IMG/VR virus record: IMGVR_UViG_2609459801_000010
Source: a virus
Taxonomy: Duplodnaviria > Heunggongvirae > Uroviricota > Caudoviricetes
Strand: one strand, 5' to 3'
DNA length: 14,433 nt
Positions 3,932 through 14,433 of the stretch are shown here, one piece after another; the stretch's first letter is position 1; each line of letters starts with the position of its first letter. The notes beneath the pieces are model-generated. The model was given only the letters and a program-made list of their open reading frames with translations, had not been told where the DNA came from and ran no database searches. Position numbers and translations under genes: made by a program.

Positions 3932-6196
3932 TTATACGGAAACTGGCACACGAGCAGGCAATGGATAGTGAGCCCAGTTATTAGCATTTAAAGCTCTTAC
4001 GCCATCAGCATAAACTTGTGTGTTTCCATCTAATGATTTTAAAGTTACTACAATAGTTACAGGTAAAGGCTCCATTAAGGCCGGTTCATTCGCTCTCAAC
4101 GTTGTTTTAGCTTGAAGAGCCCAGTTACCCGAAGTAATTCCTTTATTAAATGCCTTGCGATGAATTTTTACTGGTGACCACTTTCCACCATGCTCAATTT
4201 GAGCTCTCTCATATCCAGATTGACCGTTTTCTCCTTCCATAGGTACTTTTCCTTTTATAGTATTATTCTCAATTAAGCCAAAACTTAGCTCTACGTTCGC
4301 GCGAACATATTCACTGCCGGCATTAGGGTTCAGTGGTGGTGCATATGCAGCAGTAATTACAATCTCACCTTTAAATTTTCCATTTTGAATAAGTGCCGAT
4401 GGTATGGGATAGTTTTCCTTTCTCCACCTCACCCCAGGAACCAAGAATGTTTGGAAAATCAGAGTAAACCTATCATCACTATCATATAAGGTCTCAATAA
4501 CCTCATTAGGAATTCCCGCTCCCAAATAGCGTCTTTCACTTGGCGAGTAATCAGGAGAAGATAATTGAGCGGAATGAATTAATAATGCTTTAATCAATGA
4601 TGGTGAAACATTAAAGTCTGAATTAGTGGCTATTCTCTGCCATGTATGCGCAGCTAAACTTGCCACAATTGGAGCAGCAAAACTAGTACCAAAATTAGAG
4701 CAAAGCCTATTATCTGGCCCTACGACCTTTAAACTGCTTGCTCCTACATTCCAAGGTCTATGAACCCCACCGCCAGCATGGATTATATCTGGCTTTGGAG
4801 TAAATACAGGCCCAGGGCCACGACGAGTATATGGTGTCGGTGTTCCAATTTCACTTAAAGCATCATTAGCTTCCATATGAGAAACTGAACCAACTGTTAG
4901 TGCTCGGACTGACTCTCCAGGAGAGGAAATTAAATCAGCACCTCCAAGCGGATCAGGATTTGGCCATGTACGTATAGGTTCATCTACATAATTACCTGCA
5001 GCAACTACAAACAAAATACCAAATTTATCGCTGAGCCGATCTAACTCCATCGCAAAATCACTAAACATCTGCTCATTACATGGTCCGCCTCCCAAAGATA
5101 AATTCCAGACTTTTATATCTGGTCTTTTATTTACAGCATCTGCTAGCCTCAGAATTAAATCTGATATATAAGATCCATTTTCATCTAAAGCACAAACATC
5201 ATGGATTTTAGATTTTGTATCAGGAATCCATGGATGATTGTCATTTAAAAAATGAGCGCCTGATATCAATGAAGACACCATAGTCCCATGTTCATAACTC
5301 GTATCAGGAGGAATTACGTATGTTTCCCTACTCACTACCCAAGGAGTAATTGTTGCCGCGATGGGGCTTACCCCAGTGTCAAATACAGCAACAATGGGTA
5401 ATTCTTCTGATGGTACGGGAAAGCTATTTGTTTCAATGCCAACAGAATCACTTACACTAACCGGGAATGCTGAATATTTTGGTTCTGGAATTAACGTTCT
5501 TATACCCGGGTAATCAATGAGAATGTCTAATATATATCTATCATTTGGGGATAAATCCATTATCCTTAATAAGGGAAGACCACATTTTGGTCTAATCTCA
5601 TCATATTTAACTCCGTGTTGTTCTAATATAGAAATAACGTTTTCATAGTTGTTGTAAGTTGCATCTTCACCTGTGTACTCAAATAGTCGTACAAGGATGT
5701 TTGATGATTCAAACAAACCATCAGTGCCTCCTGGAACCTTCCTATTCTCATCCCAAGGTTCAATGCGCTCAATCGCGCTTAGGTTAGCCAAAATCGCTTT
5801 AATATTCCGATGTAAAATGACTGACTCTAATACGTCAAAACAGCCGGCATGAGCAGCAACCAACATTTCATCTATTTTGGCATGACCGGCATTTTGCAAT
5901 CCAGCCTCTTGAGCAATTTTGTTCGGCCTATGCGTTTTGGCTATTCCCTGGTCTCTTAATTTGAAAACCAAAGTACCCAAGCTTCCAGGGTACTCTGAAA
6001 GTTTGGATTCTAAATAATGTTTACTGGTTGTTAAATTTCTTACTAGCCCTTGTCTATATTCGGCTGTTACATCAACCAATACCTTTGCCCCACCGCCAGC
6101 GTTTACTATTGCACCCAAGTCACTACTGGAAAAAGGGATTCTTAACATTGGGTTTGTAACTTTTGCGTTACTAAACTGTGTACCCCTTCTGCTCAT
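3932..6196 (-). CDS. Subtilisin-like serine peptidase (peptidase S8 family), 754 aa, no signal peptide; IetS-like
   Basis: Catalytic triad in canonical subtilase order: Asp in VAVFDTGVS, His in YEHGTMVSS, oxyanion Asn in VVAAGNY, Ser in NFGTSFAAPIVAS. Polar N-terminus with no hydrophobic signal sequence. Strong SD (AAGGAG/AGGAG) before the ATG at 6196. About 270 aa N-terminal and 200 aa C-terminal to the catalytic core have no motif I recognise. Confidence 0.85.
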   Translation of the reverse strand: MSRRGTQFSNAKVTNPMLRIPFSSSDLGAIVNAGGGAKVLVDVTAEYRQGLVRNLTTSKHYLESKLSEYPGSLGTLVFKLRDQGIAKTHRPNKIAQEAGLQNAGHAKIDEMLVAAHAGCFDVLESVILHRNIKAILANLSAIERIEPWDENRKVPGGTDGLFESSNILVRLFEYTGEDATYNNYENVISILEQHGVKYDEIRPKCGLPLLRIMDLSPNDRYILDILIDYPGIRTLIPEPKYSAFPVSVSDSVGIETNSFPVPSEELPIVAVFDTGVSPIAATITPWVVSRETYVIPPDTSYEHGTMVSSLISGAHFLNDNHPWIPDTKSKIHDVCALDENGSYISDLILRLADAVNKRPDIKVWNLSLGGGPCNEQMFSDFAMELDRLSDKFGILFVVAAGNYVDEPIRTWPNPDPLGGADLISSPGESVRALTVGSVSHMEANDALSEIGTPTPYTRRGPGPVFTPKPDIIHAGGGVHRPWNVGASSLKVVGPDNRLCSNFGTSFAAPIVASLAAHTWQRIATNSDFNVSPSLIKALLIHSAQLSSPDYSPSERRYLGAGIPNEVIETLYDSDDRFTLIFQTFLVPGVRWRKENYPIPSALIQNGKFKGEIVITAAYAPPLNPNAGSEYVRANVELSFGLIENNTIKGKVPMEGENGQSGYERAQIEHGGKWSPVKIHRKAFNKGITSGNWALQAKTTLRANEPALMEPLPVTIVVTLKSLDGNTQVYADGVRALNANNWAHYPLPARVPVSV

Positions 6197-7325
6197 ATGC
6201 TCCTGACTCCTTCAGAATGTTTGAAATTACTCTTGATGTAAGTTTGTACAAATTAGCAAGAACTCTGATAGAAAATAATTTTTTATCTTTAGAACGTAAC
6301 CAACGAATTTCATCTTCGTAAGTGCTTAAATTTACACCTTCCATAAGCGATTGCGCAAGATACAAACGCCTATACAATTTATGGTGATTTATCACACTTG
6401 CACCTTCAATAACTGCATCCCTACGTGCATCCAAGCTCACCTGTTCAATTATTGCTCCGGATAATCCCTCCGATTTTCTTGATAAATCACTTAAATCTAG
6501 ATCGCTACATATCATATTCTTTAAACGATTTTTCCAAATTAACTCTCTCTGATGTATGTCAGGCAGAGGCATTGGAATTCTGAAGCTAAATCGCCTCCAG
6601 ATTGCAGGATCCAGAAGTTGCTCATGGTTAGTTGAGGCAATAATTACCGTATCCTCTGATGCCGCATCCATATTCTGCAATAGTGAAATGACAACTCGCT
6701 GAAGCTCACCTATATCTCTCTCATTACCTCTTGCTCCAGCTAAAGCATCAAATTCGTCTAAAAAAAGCACTGATGGCCTCTGCATTACATAATCGAAAAC
6801 CTGTCTAAGATTTTTGCTGGTTTGTCCCAATAAACTACTAATCAAAGTATCGCAACGCACTGTAAGAAGTGGAAAATCTAAGCGGGTAGCGATGTACTTA
6901 GATAACATAGTCTTACCTGTTCCTGGCTTTCCATACACGAGCATACGACTCGGCAATGCTGCATCAGCTTTAACAAACTCATCATAACGTTGAACATTAG
7001 TGATAAACTCTTCAACACGGGTACTGATTGCTGCAGGCAGAAAAATCTCTGAACTGTCTAATTTAGGATAACTGACATCAACAGTGTTGAGTCGACTATC
7101 AATATCTACCGGTAATGAGCCCAGAGATATCCCACCTCCAGCCCTTTGAGCTCCTGCCAACGCCTGGGGAGCTCTAAGCAACCTTTCTCTTATCATTCTG
7201 GCTTGCTTGACCTCCCCTTTTTGTTCGAGCTTATCTGCCAGCAACCCAGCATAATTACTAGCCATCGAAGCATTTGCCTTTGTTGCACCTTCAATGATTT
7301 TTAACACTTCTGATAAATAATCCAT
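6171..7325 (-). CDS. AAA+ ATPase (classical AAA clade), 384 aa; IetA-like
   Basis: Walker A LVYGKPGTGKTML, Walker B SVLFLDEFDAL, second region of homology IIASTNHEQLLDPAIWRRFSF. GGGAG SD before the ATG at 7325. 3' end overlaps the peptidase start by 26 nt, implying co-translation. Confidence 0.85.
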   Translation of the reverse strand: MDYLSEVLKIIEGATKANASMASNYAGLLADKLEQKGEVKQARMIRERLLRAPQALAGAQRAGGGISLGSLPVDIDSRLNTVDVSYPKLDSSEIFLPAAISTRVEEFITNVQRYDEFVKADAALPSRMLVYGKPGTGKTMLSKYIATRLDFPLLTVRCDTLISSLLGQTSKNLRQVFDYVMQRPSVLFLDEFDALAGARGNERDIGELQRVVISLLQNMDAASEDTVIIASTNHEQLLDPAIWRRFSFRIPMPLPDIHQRELIWKNRLKNMICSDLDLSDLSRKSEGLSGAIIEQVSLDARRDAVIEGASVINHHKLYRRLYLAQSLMEGVNLSTYEDEIRWLRSKDKKLFSIRVLANLYKLTSRVISNILKESGAYEQKGYTV

Positions 7326-8749: not shown

Positions 8750-9496
8750 TTACTTCGCAATTCCTGGCTGGACGACATTCGGACGCCAGCTCTCCCAGTT
8801 AAAATTCCCCCATAGCCCGCCGTTCATGGTCATGCGATCCATAATCCGCTCGCCGAGCAATGTTTTCATGGCCTCATAGTTCAGGTTTGTCAGCATCCCC
8901 ACGCTGCGCATCGACGCTGTCCGGCGATCAACAATCTGGTGCAGTACCACCTGCTCGTTTTTCGTCTCGCGCTGAATGCCAATTTCATCAAGAACCAGCA
9001 GATCCACTTCGCACAGTTCCCGCAAAAATTTTTCGCCTGACTGCCCATCGTCATAGCTGGCGTGGAGGGCACTCATAACATCAGCCACGGTAACCACAAT
9101 CACTGTCTGACCGTCTTTCAGCAGGCGATTCCCGATAGCTGCTGCTAAGTGGTTCTTCCCGGTACCAGGTTTTCCGCTAAACGCGAAATTTGTGCATCCG
9201 GTCATCAGTTCATCAGCGATAGATTTCGCCTGGCTCAACGCGTATCGCTGACCGTCGTTCTGCACCTGGTAATTCGCAAACGAGCATTTACGGTGCAACG
9301 GCTGGATGCCTGAGCGATTCAGAATTTTTTCCACCCGCAACTGGCGATTCAGGCGGTTGATCTCCTCGCTACGTTTCTGGCCTTCAGCAAGTTGCCACTC
9401 GTGCCACTCCGCTACCGTTCTGAATGGGGCGGTTACATGTGGCGGAGCCAGTCTTCGGATACGTTCAAGAACGCCGCCTGCCGCAATGTTTTTCAT
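8750..9496 (-). CDS. DnaC-like replicative helicase loader (248 aa)
   Basis: [39 protein letters not shown] is nearly identical in pattern to the E. coli DnaC Walker A region; Walker B LLVLDEIG. Directly downstream of the initiator gene. Confidence 0.9.
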
Positions 9497-9502
9497 GACA
9501 CG

Positions 9503-10465
9503 TCACCCCCTGAATCCCGGCGGTATTTCAGTGTCCGGTTCAGAAATGTGATTCACGCAACGCTGCGCAGGCAAACGCCCCAGGCGGATAACCAGTTCAT
9601 CCCATTTTTCCCGGAGTTTTGCCGGACTCATGATGTTTTTTACCCAGAACGAATCCCGCTGGAGACGCCCAAACATTTCACAAATTTGTCTGTGAGTTCT
9701 GCCATCCAGCATCCGCATTGTGCGAACGTCATTGGCCCATGCTGTCCAGTTGGGTTCTTTCGGTCTAGTGATCTCGCCATCATAGCTGGCCGCCTGCTCG
9801 TAAAGACTCACGATTCGTCCCCAGATCCACTGTGCGCACACCAAATCTTCCTGACTTCCCCACTGGCGTTTTTTCGCACTGAACACAACCGCGTCAGGGT
9901 GTCGGGTTAAAAAATCCTGTTCAGCCGTCTGCGGGTCCGGTTGCGAAGCGTCCGGACAAGAAGATCTTTTATCTGACGGATCAGGTTTTAATACTGACGG
10001 ATCGGGGTCAATCATCGGCCCCCTAATCGGCAGTTTTTTATCAACAGTTGATCCATCAAAATTTGACGGGTCAACCGTTGAGGGGTCAATATTTGACGGG
10101 TCAACTGTTAACGGGTCATTTTTTGCCGGGCTAATTTTTCTTTTCGGTTTATATGACTCACGCGCCGCCGCCGCAGCTGCTTCGAGTTTTTCCACATTAA
10201 GCCGATAGATATTGCTTACATTACGCCCACCGACCTTACGCTCTTCCTTCGTCAGCCAGCCCTCTTTCGCCAGTTCTGCAATAGCCGATTTCACTGTGGA
10301 TTCACTTCTTGCACCGATCTGACGCCGGATAGTTTCAATGGCAGGCCATGACACGCCCTCGTCATTGCTGTAGTCTGCAAGACGGGCCATAACCGCCACC
10401 CTGGATAAGATCATGCCGGTGAAGGCGCACCCTTCCCAGACAAGACCATGAAGCTTGCTGCTCAT
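9503..10465 (-). CDS. Phage replication initiator (O-like) with N-terminal HTH and DnaT-like C-terminal domain (320 aa from ATG at 10465)
   Basis: C-terminus ...NHISEPDTEIPPGFRG matches the DnaT C-terminus (...VSEPDSQIPPGFRG). N-terminal HTH-like segment; central low-complexity DPSxVD repeats encoded by the iterons. ATG at 10465 (after a GGGGG run) preferred over the GTG at 10480. Confidence 0.8.
   Translation of the reverse strand: MSSKLHGLVWEGCAFTGMILSRVAVMARLADYSNDEGVSWPAIETIRRQIGARSESTVKSAIAELAKEGWLTKEERKVGGRNVSNIYRLNVEKLEAAAAAARESYKPKRKISPAKNDPLTVDPSNIDPSTVDPSNFDGSTVDKKLPIRGPMIDPDPSVLKPDPSDKRSSCPDASQPDPQTAEQDFLTRHPDAVVFSAKKRQWGSQEDLVCAQWIWGRIVSLYEQAASYDGEITRPKEPNWTAWANDVRTMRMLDGRTHRQICEMFGRLQRDSFWVKNIMSPAKLREKWDELVIRLGRLPAQRCVNHISEPDTEIPPGFRG
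10048..10118. repeat. Origin-like iterons: five copies of TTGAcGGGTCAA-like 12-mers at strict 15-bp phasing inside the initiator gene
   Basis: Copies at 10048 (ttgatccatcaa), 10063 (ttgacgggtcaa), 10078 (ttgaggggtcaa), 10093 (ttgacgggtcaa), 10108 (ttaacgggtca); each is an inverted repeat TTGAC-nn-GTCAA; AT-rich stretch at 10119-10150. Same logic as the lambda ori inside gene O. Confidence 0.6.
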
Positions 10466-10487
10466 AAACCCCCCGAACACCGTGCTT

Positions 10488-10913
10488 TTAGTGCATCACC
10501 ACAGCATTCCCTGCCGGGCCGCCGCGATTCATCTGGTCATACAAAACAACCGCTGACGCAACAAAATCATCGACATCCTTCCCCAGCCGATCCCTCCGTT
10601 CGACGATCTCACGGTAATATTCAGAACTGTGGCTGCGCATACGGGCCACCAGCAAAGGCGGCATCGCCTTTTCGATCGCCGGTAACAGAGCCTGCATTTT
10701 TTCAACAGCATCAGGGGTGTCTTTATCCAGCCAACGGAAAATTTTCTGGGTATTACGGGCCAGGGCTTCCGGATGGCTGTCGTCATACAGTTCCGGGAAC
10801 GTCATTCCCAGCTCGAAATACGCTTTGGTAATTTTCGCAGCCGGCACTTTTTCGCCGTCCGGATGCGCCCAGACATTCATCGCCATGCGGATGTGTTCAT
10901 GCTTGATTTTCAT
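10488..10913 (-). CDS. YdaT-like protein (141 aa), likely CII-type regulator
   Basis: ATG at 10913 with AGGAG SD; begins MKIKHEHI; lies between the cro-like and replication genes as in the Rac ydaS-ydaT-ydaU-ydaV arrangement. Assigned from synteny and memory. Confidence 0.55.
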   Translation of the reverse strand: MKIKHEHIRMAMNVWAHPDGEKVPAAKITKAYFELGMTFPELYDDSHPEALARNTQKIFRWLDKDTPDAVEKMQALLPAIEKAMPPLLVARMRSHSSEYYREIVERRDRLGKDVDDFVASAVVLYDQMNRGGPAGNAVVMH

Positions 10914-11178
10914 GAATCAAGCTCCTAGAAAGTGGTTGTGTTAACGTTTTGGTATCTTCCAGCTCGGGCCAAATATTCATCCAATCAAAAGGCCTTAGTT
11001 GCTGACGTGTAACTTCACCATTACTGGCTCGCTCAATAAGGACACATAACGATGCCCCTAACACTTGACCTTTACTCAATGCCTTTCTTAGATAACCGAT
11101 GCTGGTACCACACTCGCATGCAAACATACGCTGTTCATCTGACGAAAGAGAATTGAGAAATATTCTTAATTCTTCCAT
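10897..11178 (-). CDS. Cro-like HTH regulator (YdaS family-like), 93 aa
   Basis: ATG at 11178 with strong SD TAAGGAG 5 nt upstream; HTH-like CGTSIGYLRKALSKGQ and ...NGEVTRQQLRPFDW; divergent from the repressor gene across an operator region. Confidence 0.65.
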   Translation of the reverse strand: MEELRIFLNSLSSDEQRMFACECGTSIGYLRKALSKGQVLGASLCVLIERASNGEVTRQQLRPFDWMNIWPELEDTKTLTQPLSRSLIHENQA

Positions 11179-11203
11179 AGCTACTCCTTAGTAAACACAG
11201 CAA

Positions 11204-11272
11204 AGAATACCCACAGGTAAACAAAAGTCAATACCCACAGGTTGTTTACCTTGCGGTAATCGCATCTATTAT
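11204..11272. promoter_or_regulatory. Divergent promoter/operator region (OR-like) between cro-like and repressor genes
   Basis: Two copies of ATACCCACAGGT (11207-11219, 11231-11243), 24 bp apart. On the minus strand they overlap a -35 TTGACT (11231-11226) and a -10 TATTCT (11209-11204) for the cro-like gene. On the plus strand a -10-like TATTAT (11267-11272) ends 6 nt before the repressor ATG. Confidence 0.5.
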
Positions 11273-11278
11273 TTACCT

Positions 11279-11698
11279 ATGGACAAATATGAATTTAGAC
11301 GACAGCAACTCATCAAAATTCGTGATGAGAAATGCGATGGTAAAGCGGTTAACGTGGCCAGAAAGATCGGGCGCGAGCCTTCTTATGTATCAAGAATGTT
11401 GTACCCAGAGGGGAAAAAGGGAAAAAAACGGATCGCTGATGATATGGTGGAGATTATCGAAGAGTCCTTTGGGTTACCCCGGGGATGGATGGATGGTATC
11501 GTTTCATCATCAACGAACACAGCCTCCAGTTATGAAACAAGGGTTCTAACGCCACGACAACGTATTTTTTTAGATCTCTTAGACGAACTGCCAGAAAGTG
11601 AAGCGGATAAATTATTAAAAACTCTTGAAGAGAAAAAACAGTATTACAATATGATCTACGAAGAAATCCGTAAAAAGAAAGCACAAAACGCATCATAG
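11279..11698 (+). CDS. Prophage repressor-like HTH protein (139 aa), RacR/DicA-position
   Basis: Divergent from the cro-like gene; HTH-like AVNVARKIGREPSYVSRML; no SD upstream and a -10 hexamer just before the ATG suggests a leaderless mRNA, as for lambda cI from PRM. Confidence 0.65.
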   Translation: MDKYEFRRQQLIKIRDEKCDGKAVNVARKIGREPSYVSRMLYPEGKKGKKRIADDMVEIIEESFGLPRGWMDGIVSSSTNTASSYETRVLTPRQRIFLDLLDELPESEADKLLKTLEEKKQYYNMIYEEIRKKKAQNAS

Positions 11699-11739
11699 CT
11701 CACCAAACAACTAGTCACCAGTTAAGACACCGCAAAAAT

Positions 11740-11778
11740 TTACCCATGGGTATTTACTTTTTAAATACCTATGGGTAT
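11740..11778. promoter_or_regulatory. OL-like operator pair downstream of the repressor gene
   Basis: Perfect palindrome TACCCATGGGTA (11741-11752) and near-palindrome ATACCTATGGGTAT (11765-11778), 25 bp apart; same TACCCAnnGGTA core as the OR-like copies; positioned to control plus-strand transcription of the ydfA-DicF-dicB operon. Confidence 0.45.
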
Positions 11779-11963
11779 CCTTCTTTTCATACCAACCCAC
11801 CCCGCCCCACAGAATGCAGGGCAATACTTCGAGTTACCAGGCAGTGGTCAGGGGTTAAGTAGCCAGCCCGAGGCGTAAGAACATGACGGCAGGGTTCAAC
11901 TTTAATAACTATGCAGCAGGTTTTTGTTCCGCTACCCCGGCGTTAAGGGGAAATGAGGTCAAC

Positions 11964-12116
11964 ATGGATATGCTCAATCTTGGCAACAACGAATCTCTGG
12001 TATGTGGCGTGTTCCCCAACCAGGACGGCACGTTTACCGCGATGACGTATACCAGAAGCAAAACGTTTAAAACTGAAGCTGGCGCGCGTCGCTGGTTAAC
12101 CAGAAACACTGACTGA
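11964..12116 (+). CDS. ydfA: YdfA-like small protein (50 aa)
   Basis: ATG at 11964 with GAGG SD 6 nt upstream; product MDMLNLGNNESLVCGVFPNQDGTFTAMTYTRSKTFKTEAGARRWLTRNTD; first gene after the operators, as ydfA is in the Qin dicB operon. Identity recalled, not searched. Confidence 0.5.
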   Translation: MDMLNLGNNESLVCGVFPNQDGTFTAMTYTRSKTFKTEAGARRWLTRNTD

Positions 12117-13098: not shown

Positions 13099-13151
13099 TT
13101 TTCTGGTGACGTTTGGCGGTATCAGTTTTACTCCGTGACTGCTCTGCCGCC
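13099..13151 (+). ncRNA. dicF: DicF small regulatory RNA (ftsZ-targeting antisense sRNA)
   Basis: TTTCTGGTGACGTTTGGCGGTATCAGTTTTACTCCGTGACTGCTCTGCCGCCC matches the DicF sequence as I recall it; a T-run follows after the GGCGG...CCGCC stem; lies just upstream of dicB as in the Qin dic operon. Ends are approximate because DicF is processed. Confidence 0.75.
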
Positions 13152-13326
13152 CTTTTTAAAGTGAATTTTGTGATGTGGTGAATGCGGCTGAGCGCACGCG
13201 GAACAGTTAAAACCAAAAACAGTGTTATGGGTGGATTCTCTGTATCCGGCGTTAATTGTTAACTGGTTAACGTCACCTGGAGGCACCAGGCACCGCATCA
13301 CAAAATTCATTGTTGAGGACGCGATA

Positions 13327-13515
13327 ATGGAAACGTTATTACCAAACGTTAATACGTCTGAAGGTTGTTTTGAAATTGGTGTCACTATCAGTAACCCAGT
13401 ATTTACTGAAGATGCCATTAACAAGAGAAAACACGAACGGGAGCTATTAAATAAAATATGCATTCTTTCAATGCTGGCCCGTTTACGTCCGATACAAAAA
13501 GGATGCTGGCAATGA
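13327..13515 (+). CDS. dicB: Cell division inhibitor DicB (62 aa)
   Basis: Product METLLPNVNTSEGCFEIGVTISNPVFTEDAINKRKHERELLNKICILSMLARLRPIQKGCWQ closely resembles E. coli DicB; GAGGA SD 8 nt upstream; stop overlaps the next start (ATGA). Confidence 0.85.
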   Translation: METLLPNVNTSEGCFEIGVTISNPVFTEDAINKRKHERELLNKICILSMLARLRPIQKGCWQ

Positions 13516-13977: not shown

Positions 13978-14433
13978 GGTAATGACTCCAACTTATTGAT
14001 AGTGTTTTATGTTCAGATAATGCCCGATGACTTTGTCATGCAGCTCCACCGATTTTGAGAACGACAGCGACTTCCGTCCCAGCCGTGCCAGGTGCTGCCT
14101 CAGATTCAGGTTATGCCGCTCAATTCGCTGCGTATATCGCTTGCTGATTACGTGCAGCTTTCCCTTCAGGCGGGATTCATACAGCGGCCAGCCATCCGTC
14201 ATCCATATCACCACGTCAAAGGGTGACAGCAGGCTCATAAGACGCCCCAGCGTCGCCATAGTGCGTTCACCGAATACGTGCGCAACAACCGTCTTCCGGA
14301 GCCTGTCATACGCGTAAAACAGCCAGCGCTGGCGCGATTTAGCCCCGACATAGCCCCACTGTTCGTCCATTTCCGCGCAGACGATGACGTCACTGCCCGG
14401 CTGTATGCGCGAGGTTACCGACTGCGGCCTGAG
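13978..14433 (-). mobile_element. IS1 insertion sequence, partial (one end plus part of the transposase region; continues beyond window end)
   Basis: Terminal inverted repeat GGTAATGACTCCAACTTATTGATAGTG starts at 13978; the encoded minus-strand protein is identical in pattern to IS1 InsB. Confidence 0.9.
13993..14433 (-). CDS. insB: IS1 transposase InsB (C-terminal part; 5' end beyond window)
   Basis: ...[128 protein letters not shown]; frame is open upstream to the window edge (track shows only the part from the internal Met at 14370). Confidence 0.9.

Follow-up and report, generated by a model that had tools for sequence, protein, structure and literature searches.

The characterized systems closest to the locus described here are the PaaR2/YdaS/YdaT switch of prophage CP-933P, the DicA/DicC/dicBp switch of Qin, and the CI/Cro switch of lambda. 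In CP-933P of E. coli O157:H7, a short repressor lacking a peptidase is encoded divergently from a YdaS-type Cro, which is followed by YdaT, and the 97-bp intergenic region carries overlapping PR and PRM promoters and several palindromic operators, with a second operator set on the PL promoter. The paaR2 mRNA is leaderless, as determined by 5′ RACE and N-terminal sequencing (PMC8630535), and the YdaT operator, TTGATTN6AATCAA, has been footprinted at the ydaS/ydaT junction (PMC9986795). In Qin of E. coli K-12 (PMC10448788), the 135-aa DicA is without a cleavage domain, and the promoter for ydfA...DicF-dicB directly follows the repressor gene, with one operator upstream of the −35 and a second between the −35 and −10; a Rem-type antirepressor is known for DicA (PMC10448788). 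In lambda, the repressor gene and cro are divergent, the first two sites of a tripartite OR are 24 bp apart, one site is centered near −42 of the maintenance promoter, the maintenance mRNA is leaderless, and a second operator set sits at PL.

We consider it very likely that the region analyzed here, part of a window of 14,433 bp (the whole stretch of DNA that was examined), serves a lambdoid E. coli prophage of the Rac/Qin kind as its immunity switch (Table 1). A repressor gene and a cro-like gene diverge from a 100-bp gap with back-to-back promoter matches, and three right (OR) and two left (OL) operator sites are present, above chance expectation and at positions conserved in 23 to 39 related loci. 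Apart from the DicA antirepressor, the traits listed above for CP-933P, Qin, and lambda are those that the window shares, or in the case of the leaderless mRNA is predicted to share, with each of them, including an exact match to the YdaT operator at the same location, for which 0.07 occurrences would be expected by chance. The differences are equally specific. The palindromes of CP-933P are 18 bp long with the half-site GTTTAGTAA, whereas those of the window read TTACC-N4-GGTAA; CP-933P has three OL sites rather than two, and the paaA2-parE2 toxin-antitoxin genes that follow its repressor are absent from that position in the window. The DNA-binding domain of DicA is unrelated to that of the window repressor, the Qin operator sequence is TGTTAGnnnnnnCTAACA-like, and DicC is a different Cro. 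Lambda operators are 17 bp long and unrelated in sequence, OR2 and OR3 are 23 bp apart as opposed to 15 bp in the window, OL has three sites as opposed to two, the CI C-terminal domain is RecA-sensitive, and rexAB lies between cI and PL. The switch is of an ordinary kind and leaves the general picture of lambdoid switches unchanged, and each of its steps has an experimental precedent in CP-933P (PMC8630535) or in Qin DicA/dicBp (PMC10448788). Its immunity type, with its operator code, is one that we did not find described in the searched literature: searches on the motif, on the literal operator strings, and on phage mEp043 (NC_019706) returned no description of these operators, and no binding, footprint, or transcript-start data were found for the repressor or for mEp043.

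The repressor is of the short DicA/PaaR2 type. Its 139 aa comprise an N-terminal XRE-type helix-turn-helix (aa 1-76), a disordered linker (77-87), and a C-terminal helical hairpin (92-138), which in the AlphaFold model (pLDDT 84.5, modeled as a monomer) consists of two helices, 92-103 and 106-138. The protein belongs to PHROG 5736 (transcriptional regulator), has no match in Pfam, Peptidase_S24 included, and has insignificant matches only among PDB sequences (E at least 0.08); Foldseek with the model matched phage repressors and XRE regulators, although weakly (best E 1e-3). Residues 1-86 are 65% identical to mEp043 cI, and the C-terminus is 33% identical over 46 aa to that of DicA, the C-terminal helices of which are homologous. 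Judged by its sequence, the repressor is a mEp043-type DNA-binding domain joined to a DicA-like helical C-terminus, without an S24 peptidase domain. In the recognition helix, EPSYVSRML, residues S35, Y36, R39, and M40 are invariant among 36 homologues, with conservation of 90% or more at E33, P34, S38, and L41. Homology to RacR was considered and rejected, BLASTP giving no significant alignment with the repressor. The cro-like protein is 73% identical to mEp043 cro, and 34 of the fetched loci encode a homologue divergently from the repressor. The operator core, the number of sites (three plus two), their spacing (25 and 15 bp at OR and 25 bp at OL in mEp043), and the distance from −10 to ATG are also alike in mEp043, which is predicted to be homoimmune with the window prophage. 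Unlike the window, mEp043 encodes a 228-aa repressor with an S24 (LexA-like) C-terminal domain, and its repressor is thus presumably SOS-cleavable; it also has lambda-type CII and N in place of YdaT and ydfA-dicB.

Table 1. Features of the predicted immunity switch (positions in the 14,433-bp window)
Feature	Position	Strand	Sequence or description	Basis
YdaT (CII-like) gene	10488-10913	−		Pfam YdaT
cro-like gene, YdaS-type	10897-11178	−	93 aa; divergent from repressor	Weak Pfam YdaS match
Predicted YdaT operator	10903-10920		TTGATTTTCATGAATCAA; cro/ydaT junction	Exact match to TTGATTN6AATCAA
PR-like promoter, cro-like gene	11204-11231	−	−35 TTGACT (11231-11226), 16 bp, −10 TATTCT (11209-11204)	Promoter scan
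O1 (OR1-like operator)	11208-11219		TACCCACAGGTA	Exact core match
O2 (OR2-like operator)	11232-11243		TACCCACAGGTT	One-mismatch match
PRM-like promoter, repressor	11245-11272	+	−35 TTTACC (11245-11250), 16 bp, −10 TATTAT (11267-11272)	Promoter scan
O3 (OR3-like operator)	11247-11258		TACCTTGCGGTA	Exact core match
Doubtful weak fourth site over start codon	11274-11285		TACCTATGGACA	Two mismatches to core
Repressor gene	11279-11698	+	139 aa	ORF
OLa (distal left operator)	11741-11752		TACCCATGGGTA, perfect palindrome	Exact match
Candidate intrinsic terminator	11741-11787	+	16-bp hairpin of OLa and OLb with T-rich tail (TCCTTCTTTT)	Terminator scan
PL-like (dicBp-like) promoter	11753-11789	+	−35 TTTACT (11753-11758), 17 bp, −10 TATCCT (11776-11781)	
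OLb (proximal left operator)	11766-11777		TACCTATGGGTA	Exact match
Conserved PL leader	11789-11963	+		Near-identical in E. coli W and K-12 Rac
ydfA-like gene, first of operon	11964-12116	+	DUF1391	Start as annotated in RefSeq

From the sequence we infer that the repressor and the Cro-like protein read palindromic operators with half-sites TTACC/GGTAA and four free bases between them. The core of this motif, TACCNNNNGGTA (TACC-N4-GGTA), has four exact matches in the window, all within 570 bp (11208-11777), and there are no others in a 25-kb locus that takes in the corresponding prophage region of E2348/69 (late-gene regulator through integrase) and adjacent host genes. The initial annotation had named four copies of a shared motif in two pairs 24 to 25 bp apart. 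All four are present, with start-to-start distances of 24 bp in the right pair and 25 bp in the downstream pair; three are exact core matches, and the copy at 11232 has one mismatch. The shared core is real, with the family-level consensus being TTACC(c/t)NNNGGTAA rather than the proposed TACCCAnnGGTA. The right operator, which had been taken for a pair on the cro-like promoter, does contain those two sites but is tripartite, O3 having gone unlisted. A partial fourth site over the ATG was set aside as not conserved, as it is not found at that position in mEp043 or in the other fetched loci.

The promoter scan scored both divergent promoters at 9/12, and the sites overlap both of them, in keeping with an OR-like set on the cro-like promoter. 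O1, centered at about −16.5 from the predicted start of the cro promoter, occupies the spacer plus 2 nt at the start of the −10, and O2 adjoins the −35 of this promoter, with its center at −41.5 from the repressor ATG/+1. The predicted cro start lies near 11197, which would give a leader of about 20 nt with the Shine-Dalgarno (SD) sequence AAGGAG. O3 overlaps the −35 of the repressor promoter and is centered at −26.5, 15 bp from O2. Because O1 and O2 cover the spacer, the −10, and the edge of the −35 of the cro promoter, repressor bound there would shut off transcription of the cro-ydaT-replication genes. Lambda CI bound at OR2 activates PRM, and the center of O2 coincides with this activating position, so repressor at O2 probably stimulates its own promoter. 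O3, lying over the −35 of the repressor promoter, could provide negative autoregulation or be the preferred target of Cro. Since O2 and O3 are 15 bp apart and not about 23 bp as in lambda, the alternate pairwise cooperativity of lambda need not apply here. Each site may be read by the repressor, by Cro, or by both. Sequence and comparison show where the sites lie, how they are arranged, how they register with the promoters, and that they are inherited together with the DNA-binding domain and Cro; we infer binding itself, activation from O2, the transcript starts, and any cooperativity.

The left pair lies 43-79 nt past the repressor stop codon (11698) on the PL-like promoter and would act there by the same design as at PR. 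The right edge of OLa adjoins the −35 (center −42.5), and OLb sits in the spacer and overlaps the −10 by 2 nt (center −17.5). The two hexamers of this promoter are weak (8/12 to consensus, below the promoter-scan threshold), and their register matches both the annotated putative PL of mEp043 and TTGACA-17-TATAGT in K-12 Rac. One layout holds in all 23 loci with a downstream pair (22 fetched loci and the window): the −35 directly follows the right half of the distal site, the spacer is occupied by the proximal site, and the TA of GGTA supplies the first two bases of a −10 whose last T never varies. Moreover, homology to the heteroimmune K-12 Rac and E. coli W prophages resumes exactly at the A at 11789, the predicted PL +1. 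This layout and this boundary support the earlier suggestion of an OL-like pair at a promoter of the leftward-operon type. The conserved PL leader has matches in thousands of E. coli genomes and shows no unusual degree of structure (z +1.5), and the repressor-OL-leader region matched no known RNA family in Rfam at the gathering threshold. Judging from the sequence downstream, where a DUF1391 ydfA-like gene and the DicF RNA are found, the PL-like promoter heads the ydfA-DicF-dicB operon, and the repressor would thus keep these cell-division inhibitors silent.

The left pair was also flagged by the terminator scan. It is possible, albeit doubtful, that the pair also, or instead, acts as RNA, forming an intrinsic terminator for transcripts from the repressor gene, in which case the hairpin and U-rich tail would stop these transcripts from entering the toxic ydfA-DicF-dicB operon. 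At −22.2 kcal/mol (z −5.9), the OLa/OLb hairpin is the most stable of the 23 OL-pair hairpins, the others ranging from −5 to −17 kcal/mol, and its tail is among the most T-rich of the 23, with 7 T in the next 10 nt. The scan finds no other terminator-like element between the repressor stop codon and PL, whereas in mEp043 a distinct GC-rich terminator precedes OL. However, any two similar palindromic operators 25 bp apart give such a hairpin, which may therefore be incidental. No more than 5 pairs of the stem are G-C, its top is A/U-rich, and the U-tract of the tail (UCCUUCUUUU) is interrupted. Inspection of the sequences by eye revealed no obvious terminator at this position in Qin, and the hairpins seen in E. 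coli W and Rac were weak. A function as terminator only is excluded by the family-wide register of pair and promoter hexamers and by the replacement of the motif in heteroimmune relatives. PL transcripts would begin 12 nt beyond the hairpin and thus escape it, and a dual use of the pair, as operator in DNA and as terminator hairpin in repressor-gene transcripts, is a tentative proposal. If true, the hairpin would insulate the toxic DicF/DicB operon from the repressor's own constitutive, leaderless transcript.

That the repressor transcript is leaderless had been proposed from the TATTAT hexamer close to the ATG, and the sequence agrees with this description: the hexamer is followed by six bases, TTACCT, and then by the ATG at 11279, and a purine-rich SD sequence is absent before it. 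This ATG is the first start codon of the ORF after an in-frame stop, with no in-frame start upstream. With 6 nt between the −10 and the ATG and no SD, the maintenance transcript is most likely leaderless, like those of lambda cI and CP-933P paaR2, its +1 being predicted to fall on the A of the ATG or beside it. Comparison strengthens the proposal. Of 45 loci, 32 have a −10-like hexamer whose end is 5-8 nt (mostly 6-7) from the ATG, 28 have a −35 at 16-18 bp from the −10 (TTTACC or TTTACT in 26), and only 6 have an SD-like tetramer ahead of the repressor ATG. The position of the −10 and the lack of an SD are thus family traits, which makes a leaderless mRNA likely. We think it unlikely that the repressor is instead made mainly from a leadered upstream transcript, for example one from a YdaT-activated PRE-like promoter in the cro/ydaT region, with the TATTAT beside the ATG being nonfunctional as a −10. 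The exact YdaT operator match is consistent with such a transcript, as is the finding that in CP-933P YdaT stimulates a PRE-like promoter aimed at the repressor gene (PMC9986795), and it would exist during establishment. It would, however, accompany rather than replace the leaderless maintenance transcript, as in lambda and CP-933P, and it too would be without an SD sequence. The fixed register of the −35/−10 pair with O3 and the ATG across 28 to 32 of the 45 loci also argues against it.

The operators recur well beyond E. coli. We compared 43 loci that encode homologues of the repressor N-terminal domain, from Enterobacterales, Aeromonas, Xanthomonas, Neisseria, Burkholderiales, and other Gamma- and Betaproteobacteria, and about 35-39 of them have three sites at fixed offsets from the repressor ATG. 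The O1 position (−72/−73) and the O3 position (−32/−33) each hold a site in 39 sequences (38 fetched loci and the window), and the O2 position (−47/−48) holds TCAATACCnnnnGGTTATTTACC, with the same degenerate right half, in 35 (34 fetched loci and the window). The offsets are −71/−47/−32 in the window and −72/−47/−32 in mEp043, and OL spacing is 25 bp in both. The 136 nt upstream hold sites at 17 per kb, compared with 0.64 per kb elsewhere. Across loci the half-sites hardly vary, and the central four bases carry 0.1-1.2 bits, with the lowest values in O3. Of the flanks, the TCAA of O2, which is TTGA on the − strand, is conserved, as is an A five bases before O1, which is the last T of the −10 on that strand. 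Among E. coli variants of the same type, six variable columns fall in the central N4 and none in the half-sites (Fisher p = 8e-4), and O1 changes in its central N4 only. Although the sites are short, with 8 specified bases, and one-mismatch matches elsewhere in the window (7103, 8310, 10819, and 13340) occur at the chance rate, the notion that the motifs are chance repeats or remnants of duplicated sequence without a regulatory role has next to no probability, being refuted by shuffles of the window (0.13 ± 0.36 exact core matches expected, with none of 200 reaching four) and by positions that are base-exact in distant bacteria while flanks and central bases diverge, and being at odds with variation in E. 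coli that avoids the half-sites.

A natural experiment is provided by the heteroimmune prophage of E. coli W, which has the repressor C-terminus and PL leader in common with the window, whereas its helix-turn-helix differs and its Cro is unrelated, the cro-like protein of the window showing no similarity to it. In this prophage the corresponding positions hold another motif (ATGTACnnnnAGTACAT-like), and heteroimmune K-12 Rac likewise differs in motif there. By this comparison, the operator motif is co-inherited with the DNA-binding domain and Cro. The sites in E. coli W appear to be 933W-like. For the window itself, 933W-type immunity was considered because the mEp043 annotation mentions 933W, and phage 933W (PMC3317979) is alike in having two OL and three OR sites and a TAC-containing half-site. 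Its 15-bp sites are symmetric about a central base pair, however, whereas those of the window have even symmetry (TAC-N6-GTA) with a 4-bp center, and none of the 12 phage records matching the repressor by tblastn is 933W; 933W-type immunity was rejected on these two grounds.

Of 5,426 complete E. coli genomes, 822 carry the immunity module over 80% or more of the query length; EPEC E2348/69, whose module is 99.7% identical, is one of them. With the module this common and its operator code known, homoimmune prophages and phages such as mEp043, and promoters that respond to the switch, become predictable, as do ways of derepressing or silencing the element. Enterobacterales, Neisseria, Xanthomonas, and Burkholderiales all have examples of this DNA-binding domain and Cro with an operator geometry that agrees to the base. 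The mEp043-type DNA-binding domain is joined in some cases to an SOS-cleavable peptidase and in others to a short helical tail, offering a clean natural series for study in which the mode of induction is swapped while specificity is kept.

Exact matches to TACCNNNNGGTA occur four times in the 14,433 bp (starts 11208, 11247, 11741, and 11766), where 0.13 would be expected by chance and none of 200 shuffles gave four, and a one-mismatch copy lies at 11232. Motif matching in the window bears out the four copies with 24/25-bp spacing that the initial annotation had arranged as two pairs, but its list was incomplete, the exact match at 11247-11258 having been overlooked. Since relatives lack the two-mismatch copy at 11274-11285, which spans the repressor start codon, it is probably not significant, and no further exact copies were found over a 25-kb locus comprising the matching E2348/69 prophage region and adjacent host genes.

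Three predicted right-operator (OR) sites, O1 (11208-11219), O2 (11232-11243), and O3 (11247-11258), separate cro from the repressor gene. A consensus scan predicts a cro promoter (PR; TTGACT-16-TATTCT, - strand, 11231-11204) and a repressor promoter (PRM; TTTACC-16-TATTAT, + strand, 11245-11272). One pair had been placed over the -35 and -10 of the cro promoter, and this holds in detail: O1 occupies the spacer and reaches the -10, and O2 adjoins the -35. O3 overlaps the repressor-promoter -35. The proposal of a leaderless repressor mRNA had been based on an ATG lacking a Shine-Dalgarno sequence 6 nt after TATTAT; both features are present at 11279, the first possible start of the ORF, with no Shine-Dalgarno sequence before it, whereas cro has a leader of ~20 nt with AAGGAG. 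Of 45 sequences, 32 have a -10-like hexamer whose end is 5-8 nt (mostly 6-7) from the repressor ATG, 28 have a -35 at 16-18 bp upstream of that hexamer (TTTACC or TTTACT in 26 of these), and only 6 have an SD-like tetramer before the ATG. Taking the A of the ATG as +1, O2 is centered at -41.5 and O3 at -26.5; in lambda, OR2 is centered near -42 of PRM, and CI activates PRM from there.

The same operators accompany the same DNA-binding domain elsewhere. Over residues 1-86 the repressor shares 65% identity with the 228-aa cI repressor of coliphage mEp043, and identity between the Cro proteins is 73%. In mEp043, TACCTGTAGGTA, TACCCATAGGTT, and TACCGGCAGGTA lie at -72, -47, and -32 from the cI ATG, and the annotated putative PL carries TACCTATAGGTA and TACCTGTAGGTA 25 bp apart. 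A database search showed this N-terminal domain to be widespread, mostly as part of a fusion (221-242 aa) with an S24 peptidase domain, sometimes in the short form found in the window. We fetched 43 loci for comparison, one genome per species; with the window counted in, 35-39 sequences have sites at -72/-73, -47/-48, and -32/-33, including those of Yersinia, Edwardsiella, Pantoea, Aeromonas, Neisseria, Xanthomonas, Paraburkholderia, and others. Sites in the fetched loci reach 17 per kb within the 136-nt upstream stretch, versus 0.64 per kb elsewhere. Most half-site positions hold 1.4-2.0 bits, except in the right half of O2, always a degenerate GGTT that runs into the TTTACC of the next site ('GGTTATTTACC'). 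Information content is 0.1-1.2 bits at the four central bases, with O3 the lowest. Four E. coli versions of the module likewise have 6 variable columns in the central four bases of five sites and 0 in 40 half-site positions (Fisher p = 8e-4, an approximate value in that three adjacent O2 changes may be a single event). A divergent homologue of the window Cro is encoded in 34 of the 43 loci. In five Klebsiella loci (L007, L009, and L011-L013), tblastn found no homologue of this Cro, and the usual middle site ('CAATACC...GGTTATTTACC') is absent, with '(t)ttgctatatttt' instead; here an altered right operator may go together with another Cro.

The AlphaFold model of the repressor (pLDDT 84.5) contains helices at 3-18, 23-30, 34-40, and 54-63, a disordered linker (77-87), and a C-terminal helical hairpin (92-103 and 106-138) homologous to the C-terminal helices of DicA. 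In a Foldseek search the top matches were Rep, the repressor of a temperate Salmonella phage (5d50, 5d4z), and after it XRE-type regulators including C proteins, HigA, SinR, and TP901-1 CI; their E-values are weak, and we take them only as support for a predicted XRE-type helix-turn-helix. In the proposed recognition helix (EPSYVSRML, residues 33-41), 4 residues are invariant and 4 more at least 90% conserved among 36 homologues, consistent with a constant operator code. The repressor has no Pfam match. As it lacks an S24 domain, it would not be expected to undergo RecA-stimulated self-cleavage.

The window and 22 of the fetched loci, 23 in all, also have a pair of sites spaced 24-26 bp downstream of the repressor gene; the first site has the consensus ...TTACCnnnnGGTATTGAC..., and the second reads TTACCnnnnGGTA and then nnnT, with the T invariant. 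The register is that of a promoter: the -35 directly follows the first site, and the TA in GGTA of the second site supplies the first two bases of the -10, the design of the cro promoter on the opposite strand. The PL-like promoter of the window would comprise TTTACT (11753-11758), 17 bp, and TATCCT (11776-11781), with +1 predicted near A 11789. This register, and the agreement of two heteroimmune prophages on placement, uphold the earlier assignment of the downstream (OL) pair to a leftward-operon promoter. The E. coli W prophage repressor has its C-terminal 52 residues and the downstream leader in common with the window, but its helix-turn-helix domain differs and its Cro is unrelated; K-12 RacR is unrelated to the window repressor. 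Each of these prophages has its own distinct motif at the OR and OL positions, Rac with a near-consensus TTGACA-17-TATAGT promoter at the latter, and in a three-way alignment identity is lost over the operator/promoter segment and returns at 'ACCAACCCACCCCGCCCC...' from the predicted +1. This motif swap, with identity resuming at +1, argues that the OL sites follow the DNA-binding domain and not the flanking DNA, despite the shared C-terminal coding segment in between.

The E. coli W locus (L003, 1100-1760) encodes a 139-aa repressor with the window-type C-terminal domain, with sites on either side, among them ATGTACTTAAAGTACTT and ATGAACACAAAGTACAT, whose 15-bp odd symmetry and T-A-C-T core agree with the published description of 933W operators, suggesting that known CI-family heads are shuffled onto a short Rac-type tail. 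The predicted PL transcript opens with ~90 nt (11789-11880; beginning ATACCAACCCACCCCGCCCCACAGAA) that are nearly identical in L003 (1745-1830) and in K-12 Rac (L047, 1806-1890) and match thousands of E. coli genomes, and therefore are conserved independently of immunity type. The 5' end is C-rich and the structure not unusual (z +1.5); a role as a Rho or antitermination site is speculation.

The OL pair could, though we consider it rather unlikely, have a second role as a terminator for repressor-gene transcripts. As RNA, the pair folds into a 16-bp hairpin (-22.2 kcal/mol, z -5.9) with UCCUUCUUUU after it, located upstream of the PL transcript starts; it is the most stable of 23 OL pairs, its tail is among the most T-rich, and a terminator scan found no other terminator-like element between the repressor gene and PL. 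The separate terminator of mEp043 also speaks for this reading. Such hairpins, however, arise automatically from paired palindromic operators, and on inspection by eye Qin has no obvious terminator at the corresponding position and E. coli W and Rac have only weak hairpins.

The window belongs to a lambdoid prophage of E. coli. Several complete genomes match the 1.3 kb surrounding the operator/repressor region at 100% identity, and EPEC E2348/69 matches it at 99.7%; 822 of 5,426 complete E. coli genomes carry this segment over at least 80% of its length. The gene order in E2348/69 (Q - RusA - DUF968 - ... - replication - YdaT - 'transcriptional regulator' - 'hypothetical protein' - DUF1391 - ... 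- dicB - exonuclease - xis - int), in which the 'hypothetical protein' is the repressor, identifies a Rac/Qin-type element.

Features of the prophage segment in window coordinates
Feature	Coordinates	Strand	Remarks
Replication gene	8750-9496	-	
Replication gene	9503-10480	-	
YdaT gene	10488-10913	-	
YdaS-type Cro gene	10897-11178	-	
Repressor gene	11279-11698	+	139 aa; PHROG 'transcriptional regulator'
ydfA-like DUF1391 gene	11964-12116	+	Downstream of repressor
DicF small RNA	13101-13152	+	Rfam RF00039, 76.7 bits; downstream of PL-like promoter

The tabulated DUF1391 start is the RefSeq ATG, preceded by GAGG; the ORF as called mechanically (77 aa) opens at 11883, and the Pfam match spans only its residues 30-75 (ORF 11883-12116).

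From sequence, the switch would have the architecture of those of lambda, CP-933P, Qin, and Rac, and the features of this type that can be tested in sequence were found. In CP-933P, which has the YdaS/YdaT backbone in common with the window prophage, paaR2 is leaderless by 5' RACE, N-terminal sequencing, and mass spectrometry, and PaaR2 and YdaS footprint the intergenic region and both repress the PL promoter with its OL sites (PMC8630535). In Qin, dicBp lies directly downstream of dicA, drives ydfABC-dicF-dicB, and is repressed by DicA (PMC10448788). Particular to the window element are the predicted TTACC-N4-GGTAA operator code, an OR geometry fixed at 24-25 + 15 bp, two OL sites and not three, and a chimeric repressor that combines a head of the mEp043 type with a tail of the DicA type. 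Our literature search, the scope of which omits much subscription literature, found no description of these operators or those of mEp043.

At the cro/ydaT junction, TTGATTTTCATGAATCAA (10903-10920) exactly matches the footprinted YdaT operator TTGATTN6AATCAA, at the same location as in CP-933P, which suggests by analogy a PRE-like establishment promoter here too. The IetAS anti-phage defence system is matched by two products encoded on the - strand, an AAA ATPase (6171-7325, 384 aa; IetA, E 9e-143) and a subtilase (3932-6196, 754 aa; IetS, E 3e-300), whose genes are placed between the replication genes and the DUF968/RusA/Q genes. By transfer of coordinates from E2348/69, dicB is expected at ~13326-13514, and beyond it an IS1 transposase ORF (13993-14370, -) lies about where the exonuclease gene begins in E2348/69.
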